A DNA stretch of 64,000 nt from an uncultured Chitinophagaceae bacterium. Lineage in GTDB: Bacteria > Bacteroidota > Ignavibacteria > UBA10030 > UBA8401. The stretch is from assembly GCA_964371615.1 (NCBI GenBank), contig CAYJMS010000001.1, forward strand, positions 688,436 to 752,435. Reading direction: 5' to 3'. A model generated the notes under the pieces. That model saw nothing but the letters and a program-made list of their open reading frames with translations, had not been told where the DNA came from and did not search any database. Below are positions 6,610-59,179 of the stretch, piece by piece. Numbering within the stretch: position 1 is the stretch's first letter; each line of letters begins with the position of its first letter. Made by a program: the position numbers and the translations under genes.

Positions 6610-8304
6610 TCAACCCAGGACCCGAAGATATTCATCCAGCGAAATCACTCCCGCCATCAATTTTTTCGCCGCATCCATCCGGATCGATTCGAATCCTTTT
6701 CGATTCGCTGCTTCGCGCAGACGCACCGGGGACGCTTGATTATAGATCAGGTCTTTTATCTCTTCATCGATCGGCAGCACTTCATGAATCGCGATCCGTC
6801 CCAGATGCCCGTCTCCGCCGCAGTTTTCGCATCCCTTTCCCTTAAACAACGTAATGGCCTCACCCAACTGGCTTAATCCGGCATCGTGCAGATCATGCTC
6901 GGTCGGTTTGTACTGAACTTTGCAATATTTGCATATCCGTCGGGCAAGTTGCTGGTAAATGACTCCGTTTAAAATCGGTGCGAGCCATGATGGGGGGATG
7001 TCGAAGTTGACCAGACGGGGAATGACAGACAGAGCATCGCTGGCCAGTACAGTGCTCAGTACCATATTTCCGGTCAATGCCGCTTCCGCTGCGGCGCGTC
7101 CGGCGGCAGGTTCGTGGATGCTGCCGAGAAAGACCACATCGGGATGCTGACGCAGCACCGCTCTCATCGATGTTGCATAATCCATTTTCTGATCAGGATC
7201 GATTTCCACCTGACTGGCAAAATTCAACCTGAATTCGACCGGATTTTCGATTGTCATGATGCTCTTTTGATCCTCGCGAAGACTGTCCAGGCATGCATAC
7301 GCTGTGGTGCTGACACCGGAACCGGACGGACCGGCGATCATTAAGAGTCCGCGGGGCCGGGTCAACAAATGGCGGACATGATTGAGATTCTCGCCGGAAA
7401 ACCCGATCTCCTTCAGATCGCGAATTCCCTGTCCCTTTCGAATGATGCGAATAGCATATCGTTCTCCCTCCATGGTCGGCAGTGTATTCACGCGGAAGTC
7501 GAAAAGAAAATTTCCGTATTGCGACGAGTACCGGCCGTCCTGGGCTTTCTTTTTGTCAAACAGTTTCAAACTGCCGCGTGTGCGGAGAACGTTACAGACG
7601 GTCTCCGTCATTTCTTTTGGAAGCGACAAATAGTGGTTCAATACGCCGTCGATATTGAGTCGCACCCTCAATTCGGTCTCCATCGGTTCCAAGTAGATGT
7701 CCGTCGCACCGAGCTTGATAGCCCGCATGACCAGTTCATCAACGATGAGATCGACATTCGGCAGTTTCCCGGAATTAAATATCTCATACACTTTTTCCTT
7801 CGGCCGGGATTTCAGGTCGATCGTCTCCAGGGGGAATTTTGACTGCAGAATTTGGTATTCATTTAGTTTTTTATCGACGCCCAGATTCAATACGGACAGT
7901 AAGGCCGATCGTTTTGCTGTTACCGGTACGATGAACGCCTTTGTTTCGTTCCGCATCGCTTCAACGATTTCTTTATACGGAGGCGACGTGAAGACAACGG
8001 TCAATTCAATACCGCTGCGGATGATCGGAAGAGCATTAAATTTTTTCAGGAACGAATCTTTGATCTGTTTGTCGGTCAATGATACCATCGATTCGGTCAG
8101 ATTCAGGAAGGGGATGTTGAAATCTTCCGAAATCGCTTCCGCCACAAGATCCTCACTCACGCCAAGCGAATCGATCAGCACGTCGGCAGTGAATTTATGT
8201 TCCGCACCTCCCATCATACGTTGGAATTTTTCGATACGTACTTTGTCAAGGTGTCCTTTCGCCATCAGGTGCCGAACAAGACGGATATCTTCTTCTTTAA
8301 TCAT
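6610..8304 (-). CDS. GspE/PilB-family secretion ATPase homolog with degenerate catalytic motifs (predicted pseudo-ATPase); N-terminal T2SSE_N-like domain, C-terminal tetracysteine zinc motif retained
   Basis: 564 aa. Walker A reads GPSGSGVST (Lys to Val, checked against the DNA). The Asp box reads TIENPVEF (Asp to Asn). Walker B reads DVVFLGSIHE instead of DVVMVGEIRD, so the catalytic Glu is Ser. The His box reads ALTGNMVLSTVLAS, so both His are lost. The CKYC...CENCGG zinc motif is intact. Confidence 0.85.
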   Translation of the reverse strand: MIKEEDIRLVRHLMAKGHLDKVRIEKFQRMMGGAEHKFTADVLIDSLGVSEDLVAEAISEDFNIPFLNLTESMVSLTDKQIKDSFLKKFNALPIIRSGIELTVVFTSPPYKEIVEAMRNETKAFIVPVTAKRSALLSVLNLGVDKKLNEYQILQSKFPLETIDLKSRPKEKVYEIFNSGKLPNVDLIVDELVMRAIKLGATDIYLEPMETELRVRLNIDGVLNHYLSLPKEMTETVCNVLRTRGSLKLFDKKKAQDGRYSSQYGNFLFDFRVNTLPTMEGERYAIRIIRKGQGIRDLKEIGFSGENLNHVRHLLTRPRGLLMIAGPSGSGVSTTAYACLDSLREDQKSIMTIENPVEFRLNFASQVEIDPDQKMDYATSMRAVLRQHPDVVFLGSIHEPAAGRAAAEAALTGNMVLSTVLASDALSVIPRLVNFDIPPSWLAPILNGVIYQQLARRICKYCKVQYKPTEHDLHDAGLSQLGEAITLFKGKGCENCGGDGHLGRIAIHEVLPIDEEIKDLIYNQASPVRLREAANRKGFESIRMDAAKKLMAGVISLDEYLRVLG

Positions 8305-54620: not shown

Positions 54621-54836
54621 ATAAGGCTCTTTACTTTTAATATACTGTTGACAAAATACTTAAAGTGAGTATGGGATGCAACGATGGACATTGTGCCTTA
54701 CAATGTTATATTATTATATTCGATGCATCGGCTAAGACAATTCTAATGATGGTTTAAAGCACTCTAACTTGCATATTGTATCGTAAATCACAAAATTTAT
54801 CGTGAGAGTATTGTACCTTAACAAGAAAAATACACT

Positions 54837-55364
54837 ATGGGATTAGGCCAAACAATGTTGACGATAATGGCGTTGATGTTGATGGGAAGGATTATTCTCT
54901 CCATTAACACGACGACATTGGATACCGGTTTCACGAAGGATATGGCCGAGTACCGTATCACTGCGACTTCGCTCGGTACGTCGATGCTGGAAGAGACATC
55001 GGCGCTGGCGTTCGACGAAAGGACCATCGATTCAACACTATATCTTACGTCAAATTTGACCGCGTCGGGAACTTTCGGGCCGGATGCCGGCGAAAGCACC
55101 GTGTATGATTATGATGATATCGATGACTACGATAACTATTACAGCATCGATACACTGGAGAATTCGGCTATATTTAAAACGCGGGTTTTGGTACACTATG
55201 TAACAATATCCGGATCAAATATCGTTACAACGACAACAAAAGGATTCAGTAAAGAAGTGGTGGTCGAAGTTACAAGCGATTATCTGGTCGATTACTCGGT
55301 GACCCCGATAAGGCCGGATACGCTGCGATTTAAGCAAATTTTCAGTTATTGGAATTTTCGATAA
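54837..55364 (+). CDS. Secreted/membrane-anchored protein with a degenerate pseudopilin-like N-terminus (pilin-like A)
   Basis: MGLG-QTMLTIMALMLMG resembles a class III signal (G|FTLIE) but lacks Glu at position +5. 175 aa, otherwise beta-rich. Confidence 0.35.
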   Translation: MGLGQTMLTIMALMLMGRIILSINTTTLDTGFTKDMAEYRITATSLGTSMLEETSALAFDERTIDSTLYLTSNLTASGTFGPDAGESTVYDYDDIDDYDNYYSIDTLENSAIFKTRVLVHYVTISGSNIVTTTTKGFSKEVVVEVTSDYLVDYSVTPIRPDTLRFKQIFSYWNFR

Positions 55365-55385
55365 AAATCATCCTGTAGAAACCGC

Positions 55386-56033
55386 ATGGGCTCACAAACT
55401 ATATTGGATTTGATCGGTTCCACCATGGTCTTCGGCAGTCTGTTGCTGATTTCGCTCCGGATAAACATGAGTACGACCGAAAATATCCAGATGTACCGTG
55501 CTGATCTTATGGTGCAGCAAAACCTTGTTGAAATTACCCGGCTGCTCGAGTATGATTTTAAAAAAATCGGCTATTGTAAAGATCCGTCGAAAATTCCCGA
55601 TCCCTCAATAGCAATTCGGTACGCCGATTCGATCAGGATCTGCTTTCTGACGGATTTTCCAACCATCGCCGATCCGCAGGGAGACGGCGTAGTCGATTCC
55701 CTGAAGTATTATGTCGGTCCGATCAGCGAAGCATCCGGGACTCCGAATCCGAACGACCGCCTTTTATATCGCGTGGAAAACGATGATGCTCCGGTCGGAG
55801 TGAATCTGGGTGTAACGGAATTCGATCTCCGGTACTTCGATGCCATGAAAAACAGTATTCCGTCTCCCGTGTTGTATCCGGGATTAATCCAGTATATGCA
55901 AATTACCATTCAGGTAGAAAATGTCGTTGCTGCCGATTCGTTGCTGGCGAATAATGCATCGTTCGACCGGTCGTATCAATCGGCGTACTGGCGTCAGGTG
56001 CGGCTCGTTGCAAAAAATCTCCGTAACCGTTAA
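55386..56033 (+). CDS. Secreted/membrane-anchored protein with a degenerate pseudopilin-like N-terminus (pilin-like B)
   Basis: MGSQTILDLIGSTMVFGSLLL resembles GFTLIELLI, with Asp in place of Glu. 215 aa. Confidence 0.35.
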   Translation: MGSQTILDLIGSTMVFGSLLLISLRINMSTTENIQMYRADLMVQQNLVEITRLLEYDFKKIGYCKDPSKIPDPSIAIRYADSIRICFLTDFPTIADPQGDGVVDSLKYYVGPISEASGTPNPNDRLLYRVENDDAPVGVNLGVTEFDLRYFDAMKNSIPSPVLYPGLIQYMQITIQVENVVAADSLLANNASFDRSYQSAYWRQVRLVAKNLRNR

Positions 56034-56041
56034 GGTCAACC

Positions 56042-57247
56042 ATGGGACGATCGTCAATATATCTTGTCATTGGTTTCAGTGCGATCATGCTCTTTACCGG
56101 CAAGAATCTGAGCAATGTCGGTGTCGAAGCGCTGGATAATTCTCTGTCGTACTATGAGAATACTCAACGGTATGCAATCGCTGTTGCCGCAGCAAATCTC
56201 GTCTGTTCAAAAATATGGGAATCTCCGTCTTATTCGGCATCCTATACAGATGTCAATTACAACGGCGGAACGTTCAGCACATCGGTCACGAATCTCGGAG
56301 GCGGCATGATCCAAATTGAAGCCGTCGGTTCGTACGGCGGAAAGTCGCAATCGGTGACCATTACCATGAAACCAAGTTCGTTTTCAAAATTTGCATATTA
56401 CGGCGGGACAAGTGCCTCCGCAGCGGCATGGGAAACGGGCGATACGATCGGCGGACCGAGCCATACGCAGGGCAAGTTAAAGACATACGGATCTCCGGTC
56501 TTTTTGGGAAAAGCGACATCAAAGACAGGGATCACGATGACCGGATCGCCGAAAAATCCGCAATTCTTCGGCGGATTTGAATCCGGTGTCGATATTCCGA
56601 TGCCGGATAATACCAGCTACAATAATATTCTTTCCGCTGCCTCCGCCGGAGGGTATATACAGACCGGCGGAGATCTGTACCTAAAATTCAATTCCGACGG
56701 AACAGTCAGCTGGAAGACGTCGTCGTCAGGATCGTATATAACAGTGTCCCTCAGTTATTTTGCTCCCAACGGAGTAATTGCAATTGACAAAGGGAATTTG
56801 TTCGTGGAAGGGACATTGGACGGTAGAGTGACAGTTGCATCACTCCGGTCGGGCGGCAGTTCCGGCGGAACGACAACGATATTGAATAGCATCGTTATGA
56901 AGGACGATCCCCGGACAAATCCATTGTCGGATGATCTTCTCGGTATCGTCAGTTACGGAGATATCACGGTTGAAGACAACGGCGCCACACAATTTGATGT
57001 TCAGGCGTCGATGTATAGTTATAAGGGAGGACTTGCAGTGGAACATGGAACATCCCGGCCCGCCGGAAACCTCAATATACTCGGCGGCATGATTGTGGAA
57101 AAACTGTACGCTACATCCAACGGGGCATCCGGGAGTTCACGTAAAGGATACAACCTTATTCTCCGGTTTGACGAGAGAATGTATAATGATTCACCTGATT
57201 ACTTCCCCGCAACAGGAAAATATGAGATCCTTTCCTGGTTTGAATGA
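56042..57247 (+). CDS. PilX-like minor-pilin-type protein with a Gly/Ser-rich beta domain (pilin-like C)
   Basis: Hydrophobic N-terminus IYLVIGFSAIMLF followed by ENTQRYAIAVAAANLV (PilX_N-like helix). 401 aa. Confidence 0.4.
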   Translation: MGRSSIYLVIGFSAIMLFTGKNLSNVGVEALDNSLSYYENTQRYAIAVAAANLVCSKIWESPSYSASYTDVNYNGGTFSTSVTNLGGGMIQIEAVGSYGGKSQSVTITMKPSSFSKFAYYGGTSASAAAWETGDTIGGPSHTQGKLKTYGSPVFLGKATSKTGITMTGSPKNPQFFGGFESGVDIPMPDNTSYNNILSAASAGGYIQTGGDLYLKFNSDGTVSWKTSSSGSYITVSLSYFAPNGVIAIDKGNLFVEGTLDGRVTVASLRSGGSSGGTTTILNSIVMKDDPRTNPLSDDLLGIVSYGDITVEDNGATQFDVQASMYSYKGGLAVEHGTSRPAGNLNILGGMIVEKLYATSNGASGSSRKGYNLILRFDERMYNDSPDYFPATGKYEILSWFE

Positions 57248-57331: not shown

Positions 57332-59179
57332 GTGAAAATAGTGTTTTCCATATTGACTGCAACTGTCTTTTTGACGCTTCTCTTCGGTCAACCGAATAAC
57401 GACCAGAACGTCTTCCGGCTTGCACAGGCGTTCGAACAGCAGGGGGATTATGAGCGGGCTCTGGAATTATACCGCAGTCTGTATGCCCGCGAACCGAACA
57501 ATTATCCGTACTTCGACGCACTCCGGCGCACATTCGTCCAATTAAAGAAATACGATGATGCCATCGATGTAAGCAGGGAACGATTACGTCTGCTGCCGTT
57601 CGATTTCACTCTTCAGGCGAATATCGGCAGCCTCTATTCGATGTCCGGTCGGGAGCGGCAGTCGGATTCAGTCTGGAACCTGATCCTCGTTGCGTCGAAT
57701 AAAAATCAGATGGTCTTTCGCGCCGTTGCGGCGGAACAGACAAACCAGCGATTGTTCGATAAGGCGATCGGGACGTATCGGCGGGGGAGAAGGGAGATCG
57801 GCGATCCGTTTGTCTTTGCCAATGAGATGGGATATCTCTATTCGTTCATGATGGATTACGAGAATGCCGCTAAGGAATTTTTGTTATTGCTCCGTCAGAA
57901 CGAGCAGCAGTACGATTTCATCCAATCCCGCTTGGCAGGCATCATTGCGAAAACGGACGGTCTCCGGGCAGTGACGACGGTTGTCGAAGCGGAAATCAAA
58001 CAGCGGCAGACTATCCCGTTACTGCGTCTGCAGATGTGGTTGTCCATGGAGGATAAAAAATTTTCCGATGCGTTCGACATTGCTCAGACGATCGAACGGC
58101 TGCTCAATTCCGGCGGGGTGGAGGTCTTCCAATTTGCCGAACGGTCGGCACGGGAACACGAATACATGGTGGCGTCCCGTGCGTATCGTCTGGCTCTCCA
58201 AAAAAATCTGCCGGTGCAGTATCTCCAATCCGCCCGGTTTGGTTTTGCTCGCTGTGTCGAAGAGTTAAGCAGTGGCGGGGATACCGCCGTATCACGGCAG
58301 TCCACATCAGCTTCGACGGTGCGAGAGACGCAGCCGAATTTTTCCGATGCGATCGAACTGTATTCTGCGTTGGCGAAGGATTTCCCCTACACTGCCGCCG
58401 CGGCAAATGCACTCTACCGAATCGGGATGATCCGGTACATGCGATTATACGATCTTGACGGAGCACTGCAGGTATTCGATTCGGTCCTTACCGTTGCTCC
58501 TGCGGGGCCAATGGTGGCTACCATACTTTCGGCGATTGGGGATATTCACATCGCGCAAAATAAATTGGAAACGGCCGGGAAAAAATATACCATCATATCG
58601 CAGACGCCGCACGCAACACAGGAGCAAAAGGATCGTGCGCTGTTTCGTTTGGCTGAGATCCAATATTTCACGAATTCGATGGACAGCGCTCTGTCCCTGC
58701 TGCGACCGCTGACCCAGAAACTGAAGGCTGACGAGACCAACGATGCACTATTGTTACAGTATTTTATAACGGAAAACTCATTCCAGTATCGCGATGCATT
58801 GAAGCAGTACGCCCGAGCTGAACTCTTGGCGCTTCAAAACCGGCTGGGCGATGCAGTGACTGAGATGCTGTCATTGATCGACGTGTATCCGGCCGCACCG
58901 CTGACGGATAACGCGGTGTTGACCGCTGCGTCATATTTGACAACACTACAACGGTACAACGATGCAGTGGTGTTGTATAACAGACTTTTTGACGAGTTTA
59001 AAACCAGTACCGAGAAAGAAAAGGCGTATTTCAAGATCGGTGAATTGTATCAATTCTATTTGAAAGAACCGGAAAAAGCAATTACCGCCTATGGGACGAT
59101 TCTGGAAAAATATCCCTTCTCACTCTTTGCCGAAGAAGCGAGAAAAAGAATCCGATTGTTGCGCGGGGATTCTATCTGA
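57332..59179 (+). CDS. Secreted TPR-repeat protein
   Basis: Signal peptide. Multiple TPR-like helices (AQAFEQQGDYERALELYRSLYA...). Confidence 0.7.
   Translation: MKIVFSILTATVFLTLLFGQPNNDQNVFRLAQAFEQQGDYERALELYRSLYAREPNNYPYFDALRRTFVQLKKYDDAIDVSRERLRLLPFDFTLQANIGSLYSMSGRERQSDSVWNLILVASNKNQMVFRAVAAEQTNQRLFDKAIGTYRRGRREIGDPFVFANEMGYLYSFMMDYENAAKEFLLLLRQNEQQYDFIQSRLAGIIAKTDGLRAVTTVVEAEIKQRQTIPLLRLQMWLSMEDKKFSDAFDIAQTIERLLNSGGVEVFQFAERSAREHEYMVASRAYRLALQKNLPVQYLQSARFGFARCVEELSSGGDTAVSRQSTSASTVRETQPNFSDAIELYSALAKDFPYTAAAANALYRIGMIRYMRLYDLDGALQVFDSVLTVAPAGPMVATILSAIGDIHIAQNKLETAGKKYTIISQTPHATQEQKDRALFRLAEIQYFTNSMDSALSLLRPLTQKLKADETNDALLLQYFITENSFQYRDALKQYARAELLALQNRLGDAVTEMLSLIDVYPAAPLTDNAVLTAASYLTTLQRYNDAVVLYNRLFDEFKTSTEKEKAYFKIGELYQFYLKEPEKAITAYGTILEKYPFSLFAEEARKRIRLLRGDSI

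Follow-up and report, generated by a model that had tools for sequence, protein, structure and literature searches.

Three consecutive genes of an uncultured bacterium raise the question of whether a type IV filament can have minor pilins encoded apart from its assembly machinery and with N-termini that lack the usual prepilin signature. The genes, denoted g1, g2, and g3, lie in a 64,000-nucleotide (nt) stretch of contig CAYJMS010000001.1 (assembly GCA_964371615.1, positions 688,436 to 752,435; hereafter, the window) from a bacterium deposited as Chitinophagaceae. A first-pass annotation, made from the sequence alone, had suggested either that the genes encode diverged minor pilins or pseudopilins of a type IV filament system or that they represent an unrelated family of N-terminally anchored surface proteins. 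The folds predicted for g2 and g3 and the conservation of the three genes beside filament machinery support the former, and neither of the two outcomes that the annotation had named as refuting it was observed. The three genes, termed here the orphan triplet, are likely a second copy of the core minor-pilin (priming or tip) complex of an Ignavibacteriota-specific, type IVa-like pilus that would be built elsewhere in the genome. The open reading frame (ORF) list gives the three genes as follows:

54837-55364, forward strand: g1, 175 amino acids (aa)
55386-56033, forward strand: g2, 215 aa
56042-57247, forward strand: g3, 401 aa

The genes are co-directional, with gaps of 21 nt between g1 and g2 and 8 nt between g2 and g3, exactly as initially described, and their N-termini (MGLGQTMLTIMALMLMG, MGSQTILDLIGSTMVF, and MGRSSIYLVIGFSAIML, respectively) read as quoted there.

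Predicted folds of g2 and g3 match minor pilins

The AlphaFold2 model of g2 (predicted local distance difference test score [pLDDT], 78) consists of an N-terminal helix spanning residues 2 to 59 (58 residues) and a β-sheet. In a Foldseek search, the top 14 PDB matches were all XcpW/EpsJ/GspJ proteins (including the XcpGHIJK model) or Thermus TTHA1219, with probabilities of 0.96 to 1.0 and E values of 2e-4 to 4e-3; the next match had an E value of 0.2. The entries of the GspJ class were 3nje, 3cfi, 6utu, 2ret, 3ci0_J, 5bw0, 5vtm, and 9a1f, and the template modeling (TM) scores to this class and TTHA1219 are modest (0.33 to 0.52). The best match is the Thermus minor pilin TTHA1219, which is probably PilA3. 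In the JGI annotation, several g2 homologs are labeled PulJ, and the g2 homolog of locus L001 shows a faint match to the Pfam family PpdB. The modeled fold, a pilin lollipop, assigns g2 to the GspJ/PilW class of minor pilins. Residues 89 to 104 of g2 form a conserved acidic, D-rich loop (TD...GDGxxD), which in Melioribacteraceae homologs is a textbook DxDxDGxxD (TDVDSDGNID).

The model of g3 (pLDDT, 90.6; predicted TM score, 0.80) starts with a helix (residues 3 to 60), followed by a four-stranded sheet (68 to 113), a β-rich, solenoid region (119 to 375), and a final strand (390 to 400). Judging from this order of secondary structure elements, the β-solenoid appears to be inserted before the last β-strand of the pilin domain. 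The sole significant PDB fold matches are three chains of Thermus thermophilus ComZ (6qvi), with E values of 2e-9 to 4e-8 over ∼470 columns and a sequence identity of 13 to 14%. ComZ, a tip pilin associated with competence, has a GspK-like pilin fold into which a β-solenoid is inserted, between the last two strands; its residue at +5 is Gly rather than Glu, it is not predicted to be a substrate of PilD, and it binds both DNA and the neighboring GspI-like PilA2 (PMC6561018). Going by the model, g3 is a tip pilin of the ComZ/GspK/PilX class. The initial description of g3 as resembling PilX is therefore apt with respect to its position and fold class, but there is no PilX_N match at an E value of ≤1. 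In Pfam, g3 shows a weak match to DUF4900 (PF16241; 17.4 bits and an E value of 0.006, below the gathering threshold of 29.4 bits), and many g3 homologs at 35 to 52% identity carry a precomputed PF16241 match. A conserved motif, TGDTxxGPxHTQGKL, of which TGDTxxGPxH is invariant, is located in this DUF4900 region.

Profile searches of PDB sequences with the g2 and g3 families, and likewise with g1, gave no meaningful matches. Both models combine a long N-terminal helix with β-sheets, and their structural relatives are confined to the GspJ class for g2 and to ComZ for g3. These PDB matches are to pilins only, and the proposal of unrelated, N-terminally anchored surface proteins was rejected for g2 and g3.

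A paralogous triplet is embedded in a pilus machine cluster

When 185,579 species genomes were scanned with the g2 profile, 346 loci were found. The best 80 of these come from Ignavibacteriota, save for a few obviously mis-binned labels, and include the cultured Melioribacter roseus and Stygiobacter electus; together with loci L001 to L005, they make up a set of 85. In every locus examined, g1, g2, and g3 are found together and in the same order.

The organism of the window itself carries a second triplet. A g2 paralog with 64% identity (P0184) occurs in the same assemblies as the window g2, with the same longest contig listed for both (2.33 Mb), and the coverage of the two triplets is matching, with 19.2x and 17.6x in ERZ13693050 and 6.4x and 6.2x in ERZ13692972. 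The two kinds of triplet, orphan and machine embedded, co-occur in seven other metagenome-assembled genomes (MAGs). The second triplet, g1'-g2'-g3', belongs to a cluster for a type IV pilus (T4P) machine in the order pilins, PilC, PilB, g1'-g2'-g3', PilT, two proteins without a Pfam family, and secretin:

Pilin genes: two, 142 and 133 aa, N-terminus MGQQQLLLIILGVIIVGIAV
PilC: T2SSF
PilB: 595 aa, E value of 3e-83 to Myxococcus xanthus PilB
g1'-g2'-g3': between PilB and PilT
PilT: genuine, E value of 1e-69 to PilT 2ewv
520-aa protein with one predicted membrane span and 295-aa protein: after PilT, no Pfam family
Secretin: 418 aa
Big_1 lipoprotein: after the secretin, at the edge of the cluster

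By position, the 520-aa and 295-aa proteins could be alignment subunits of the PilM/N/O type. The order of the machine recurs in ∼40 of the 85 Ignavibacteriota loci; the triplet is kept with type IV filament genes both in the same organism and in these loci. Two genes are conserved at the edges of the cluster. One encodes an 835-aa polytopic membrane protein without a Pfam family (L004, 2224-4731), which, as a guess, might be a pilin glycosyltransferase; the other encodes an 860-aa Big_1/invasin-like lipoprotein directly after the secretin (L004, 17025-19607). In machine loci L042, L048, L050, L051, L054, and L059, an extra PilB-like gene lies upstream of the pilins.

The candidate major pilins (L004, 5018-5928, and ∼80 genes in L016 to L078) are 127 to 146 aa long and occur as 2 to 4 tandem paralogs. 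All have nearly the same N-terminus, MGQQQLLLIILGVIIVGIAVAVGITMFQDNA, as well as an LGGGG motif that is conserved. They go unrecognized by Pfam, apart from a weak match to ComP_DUS (E value of 0.002). Their profile gave only marginal matches to PDB sequences (E values of at least 0.05), although the best and several of the next-best of these are pilins (6w8u, PilE1, geopilin, and Thermus PilA5).

The composition of this cluster bears on whether the triplet might instead serve a pseudopilus like that of a type II secretion system (T2SS), with g1 to g3 acting as the GspI/J/K tip that pushes substrates through the secretin. Indeed, g2 matches T2SS GspJ as well as it matches T4P minor pilins, some of its homologs bear the PulJ label, the secretin is short (418 aa), and M. 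roseus secretes many glycoside hydrolases (PMC3534657). However, the cluster encodes a bona fide PilT retraction ATPase, a hallmark of type IVa pili (T4aP) (the PilB/PilT duplication is discussed in PMC6668835), along with 2 to 4 tandem major-pilin paralogs, and bulky ComZ-type tips are known for pili but not for T2SS. Together, PilT and the multiple paralogs of the major pilin favor a retractile, T4aP-like pilus over a T2SS, and a secretion pseudopilus accordingly seems quite improbable.

The orphan triplet is conserved and under purifying selection

Each of g1, g2, and g3 has hundreds of full-length homologs, which, along with low nonsynonymous divergence (dN) at saturated synonymous sites, implies that these ORFs are not chance occurrences. 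The named source organisms are almost always Ignavibacteriota or “Bacteroidota” MAGs; the labels Bacillota, Bacteriovoracaceae, and Chlorobiaceae attached to a few homologs look like mis-binning. Nearly all homologs are annotated as hypothetical, the exceptions being the JGI PulJ label for some g2 proteins and DUF4900 for some g3 proteins.

The orphan layout, in which rseP and dxr are followed by g1-g2-g3 and then by a gene for a TPR protein, is syntenic in eight loci (L007 to L014). The orthologs are 73 to 80% identical, with dN of 0.15 to 0.24 and saturated synonymous sites, which indicates strong purifying selection on the orphan triplet. This pattern speaks to the possibility that the triplet is a redundant duplicate undergoing decay or a group of N-terminally anchored surface proteins without a remaining role in any pilus machine. 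In favor of such a fate, no machine gene is linked to the triplet in the window, and its neighbors, dxr and rseP, are housekeeping genes. Yet, in all eight orthologous loci, the frames are intact, the lengths are identical (215 aa for g2), and the N-terminal helices and motifs are invariant; moreover, orphan and tandem triplets are the rule in the Melioribacteraceae. Pseudogenization is ruled out by the evidence of selection, and loss of pilus function is hardly credible.

In the Melioribacteraceae, the triplets stand apart from machine genes, often as tandem duplicates (L001, 6896-13091, and L045, L046, L052, L055, L062, L064 to L066, L072, L074, L082, L084, and L085). Some of these loci carry additional copies of g3 as well as second copies of g2 that have diverged strongly (33 to 36% identity). 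Locus L001 also contains a 181-aa ORF whose C terminus, EILEWDE, resembles that of g3.

g1 is a putative minor pilin in the GspI/PilV position

The N-terminus of g1 is M-G-L-G-Q followed by a hydrophobic helix, with G4, Q5, and T9 invariant in family alignments. Residues 93 to 98 form an invariant acidic motif, FDDxDDY; like the D-rich loop of g2, it looks like a Ca2+-binding loop. A search of 1.8 billion representatives with the g1 profile yielded 963 clusters at the 50% identity level; of the 150 family members listed, nearly all start with an N-terminus of the M-x-x-G/Q type 3 to 4 residues long, P0501 being the only listed member with an N-terminal extension. Public gene calls place the start of g1 either at 54837 (175 aa) or at 54867 (165 aa, M11); the conservation of M1-G-x-G-Q across the family favors the 175-aa call.

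Sequence comparisons beyond the family were unproductive: a deep g1 profile (122 representatives) gave only noise against Pfam, hhalign detected no relationship of g1 to the g2 and g3 families, and a hidden Markov model search of all representatives with g1 reached no canonical pilin. However, g1 is always the first gene of the triplet, also inside the T4P machine cluster. The first-gene position corresponds to that of GspI, PilV, and PilA2. On the strength of this fixed position and the conserved N-terminal hydrophobic helix, g1 is considered pilin-like and proposed to be a putative minor pilin in the GspI/PilV position.

The pilins of this system have minimal leaders and lack Glu5

A class III leader, cleavage after Gly at -1, and Glu at position 5 (Glu5) are held to define the type IV filament superfamily. 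In the Ignavibacteriota families, the start is M-[GN]-x-G-Q for g1, MG[SF][QS]xx[LI]D for g2, and MGR(S/T) or MGGK for g3, and the major pilin begins MGQQQLLL, in each case at a conserved Met. In 79 of 94 g1, 81 of 97 g2, 90 of 96 g3, and 79 of 84 major-pilin genes, no earlier start codon is available between this Met and the preceding in-frame stop, which lies a median of 3 to 4 codons upstream; in the window, the g1 ATG has an in-frame TAA 18 nt upstream. Given these stops, the leader is at most 1 to 4 residues long, and an overlooked longer N-terminus is ruled out. The leaders of g1, g2, and the major pilin contain no basic residue. A conserved Gly precedes the hydrophobic segment (G4 in g1 and G2 in the other classes), which is compatible with either cleavage of a short leader or simple removal of Met.

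Glu at +5 is absent, as the first-pass annotation had noted, but g2 (MGSQTILD, with M1, G2, and D8 invariant) has an invariant Asp8, which would be residue +5 if the mature end is Q4 and +6 if the protein is cut after G2. Among the four pilin classes, only g2 has such an invariant acidic residue near +5: the residue at +5 is an invariant Thr in g1 (counting from a boundary between G4 and Q5) and Leu in the major pilin, and g3 is without Glu5, as are GspK, PilX, and ComZ. In the Melioribacteraceae, the g2 N-terminus reads MGFSTLID, in which a relic of G/FTLIE (slash, cleavage site) is recognizable. The M. roseus genome paper reported pilT, pilQ, pilB, and pilC, whereas no pilA or pilD was detected (PMC3534657); the missing pilA is explained by the divergence of these pilins, and the lack of pilD may be real.

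It is conceivable, albeit rather doubtful, that the Ignavibacteriota pilus is built from pilins synthesized with neither leader nor Glu5 and that it assembles in the absence of a prepilin peptidase and of N-methylation. If so, this pilus would be the first case of a type IV filament that dispenses with the signature processing step of the family, and the window triplet would be a leaderless tip complex in which Met-Gly serves Met removal or membrane insertion, not PilD cleavage. The occurrence, phylum-wide and in all pilin classes, of a 1- to 4-residue leader without Glu5 bears on the need for cleavage, for N-methylation, and for the Glu5 salt bridge.

A proposed second tip complex for a distant machine

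The mechanism proposed for the orphan triplet draws on analogy with GspI-J-K, PilV-W-X, and PilA2-(PilA3)-ComZ. g1, g2, and g3 would insert in the inner membrane via their N-terminal hydrophobic helices and form a helix-bundled, GspI/J/K-like heterotrimer, with g1 in the I/PilV position, g2 in that of GspJ/PilW, and g3 as a GspK/PilX/ComZ-like cap. On the PilC/PilB platform, the heterotrimer would prime polymerization of the major pilin (N-terminus MGQQQLLLIILG...). It would then sit at the tip of the pilus, with the bulky β-solenoid of g3 serving as plug and receptor. The orphan set would thereby give the same machine another tip specificity, for example, adhesion to a substrate or polysaccharide versus binding of DNA or another ligand. 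Between the orphan and machine-embedded triplets, identity is 66% for g1 and 64% for g2 but only 42% for g3, and for this reason an alternative tip specificity is the most likely role of the orphan set; divergence concentrated in the tip subunit fits such a role.

The ligand is where a more specific alternative enters, namely, that the triplet is a competence (DNA uptake) tip set like Thermus PilA2-PilA3-ComZ, with g3 as a DNA receptor and not an adhesin. The sole structural relative of g3, ComZ, is a DNA-binding competence pilin (PMC6561018), the best match of g2 is likewise a Thermus minor pilin with a neighboring locus tag, TTHA1219, and cyanobacterial “Com-type” priming sets also include β-solenoid PilX homologs (bioRxiv 10.64898/2026.02.12.705559). 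Conversely, g3 and ComZ are only 13 to 14% identical, β-solenoids are generic binding scaffolds, comEA, comEC, and dprA were not seen near any locus, and neither triplet stands out as the “Com” set. A dedicated DNA uptake function for the orphan triplet appears unlikely.

Several findings weigh against assigning the triplet to a T4aP-like tip complex at all. No relative of g1 beyond its own family was found with Pfam, PDB-sequence profiles, or hhalign. Against Pfam and NCBIfam, none of g1, g2, and g3 has an N_methyl, T2SS pseudopilin, or PilX_N match at an E value of ≤1, and the canonical class III signal is absent, with no basic leader in g1 and g2 and no Glu5. The window and the 10 kb around each machine cluster contain no Peptidase_A24 gene, and no polytopic ORF resembling PilD was seen near the machine loci, which does not establish that the genome lacks one. 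There are three minor pilins only, rather than four or five, and no PilY1-like gene. Finally, the orphan set has no physical link to the machine, and its use of a distant one is suggested by paralogy. Nevertheless, a second minor-pilin complex remains the favored interpretation of the orphan triplet, and it puts names on proteins that are otherwise listed as hypothetical.

Genomic context in the window

The features around the triplet include the following:

6610-8304, reverse strand: PilB-like gene, 564 aa
45084-52012, reverse strand: four co-directional genes
54621-54836, forward strand: AT-rich leader, 216 bp, 31% GC, between the divergent dxr and g1
57332-59179, forward strand: TPR protein, 615 aa, with a signal-peptide-like N-terminus

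The leader is presumably the promoter region of the triplet; sigma-70-like matches at 54685-54714 are consensus matches only and are not significant over shuffled sequences. The first-pass annotation had placed the whole cluster in an AT-rich stretch. This is correct for the leader but not for the triplet, with a GC content of 47.6% compared to the window mean of 49.0% (22nd percentile); because this composition is ordinary, a horizontal-transfer island was rejected.

Among the ORFs of the 64-kb window, none encodes PilC, a secretin, a major pilin, or a polytopic PilD-like protein, in agreement with the initial description. The PilB homolog at 6.6 kb, fairly called degenerate there, is full length by Pfam (T2SSE, E value of 3e-82; MshEN, E value of 4e-6), but its Walker A motif reads GPSGSGVST (Lys replaced by Val) and its GEIRD-type box reads GSIHE. 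This PilB/MshE-like orphan is probably an ATPase without catalytic activity and might serve as a cyclic di-GMP-binding regulator.

The TPR gene downstream of the triplet follows it in most of the syntenic loci with downstream sequence (L007 to L013); its product may be functionally linked to the triplet, e.g., as a pilotin-like protein, or the gene may merely flank the insertion site. The four co-directional genes may form a signaling operon; they encode a 735-aa CHASE2 sensor that carries an adenylate/guanylate cyclase domain, a protein of 808 aa without a Pfam family, a 365-aa protein with a FecR domain, and a protein of 385 aa, again without a Pfam family.

Comparison with known systems

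A literature search found no description of this Ignavibacteriota pilus system, and a survey of the type IV filament superfamily makes no mention of Ignavibacteria. The kind of system is known; what is new is a phylum-wide pilus that appears leaderless and devoid of Glu5 and has both orphan and embedded tip sets.

The known systems that come closest are a Thermus competence locus, the tip complexes of T2SS and T4aP, and the dual priming sets of cyanobacteria. The first of these is the competence-pilin locus of T. thermophilus (pilA1-pilA2-pilA3-comZ-pilA4; structures ComZ 6qvi and TTHA1219 5g23). Like ComZ, g3 combines, in its model, a GspK-like pilin domain with a large β-solenoid and is without Glu5, and the gene order is again small pilin, J-like pilin, large tip pilin. 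However, g3 is shorter (401 aa compared to 554 aa) and only distantly similar (13 to 14% identity), and the Thermus pilins have ordinary prepilin leaders, whereas those of the triplet are 1 to 4 residues long. The Thermus constructs omit the 30 to 33 N-terminal residues that comprise the peptidase sequence and the hydrophobic helix (PMC6561018).

With the T2SS GspI-J-K (XcpV-W-X and EpsI-J-K) and T4aP PilV-W-X (plus FimU) sets, the triplet shares three minor subunits in the I-J-K order, a J-like fold predicted for g2, and a last, largest subunit without Glu5, which in these systems caps the fiber. In contrast to GspK, with its α-helical insertion, g3 is predicted to have a β-solenoid; the triplet also has no GspH/FimU adaptor gene and no canonical G/FTLIE signal. 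Unlike T2SS, the Ignavibacteriota machine has PilT, and g1 is not demonstrably GspI-like.

Within the FCB (Fibrobacterota-Chlorobiota-Bacteroidota) group, the “T2SS” of Cytophaga hutchinsonii (CHU_3191-3201), which clusters with T4aP in phylogenies, is likewise a type IV filament system whose minor pseudopilins and platform proteins have diverged strongly. The Cytophaga cluster, however, has a Peptidase_A24 prepilin peptidase, a Pfam-recognizable GspG, and a single ATPase, whereas the Ignavibacteriota cluster has no peptidase gene, both PilB and PilT, and pilins unseen by Pfam.

A precedent for the use proposed for the orphan triplet comes from cyanobacteria. In Synechocystis, two core minor-pilin sets were demonstrated to act with one machine to produce different pili, and their PilX homologs have ComZ-like β-solenoids (bioRxiv 10.64898/2026.02.12.705559). 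As in these dual sets, the Ignavibacteriota have several minor-pilin sets per T4P machine, a predicted β-solenoid tip subunit, and no PilY1. Unlike the four-gene cyanobacterial sets, those of the Ignavibacteriota, a different phylum, consist of three genes, appear leaderless, and include one set embedded in the machine cluster. The orphan triplet would thus extend the ComZ/β-solenoid tip design, and the logic of several priming sets serving one machine, to a third phylum.

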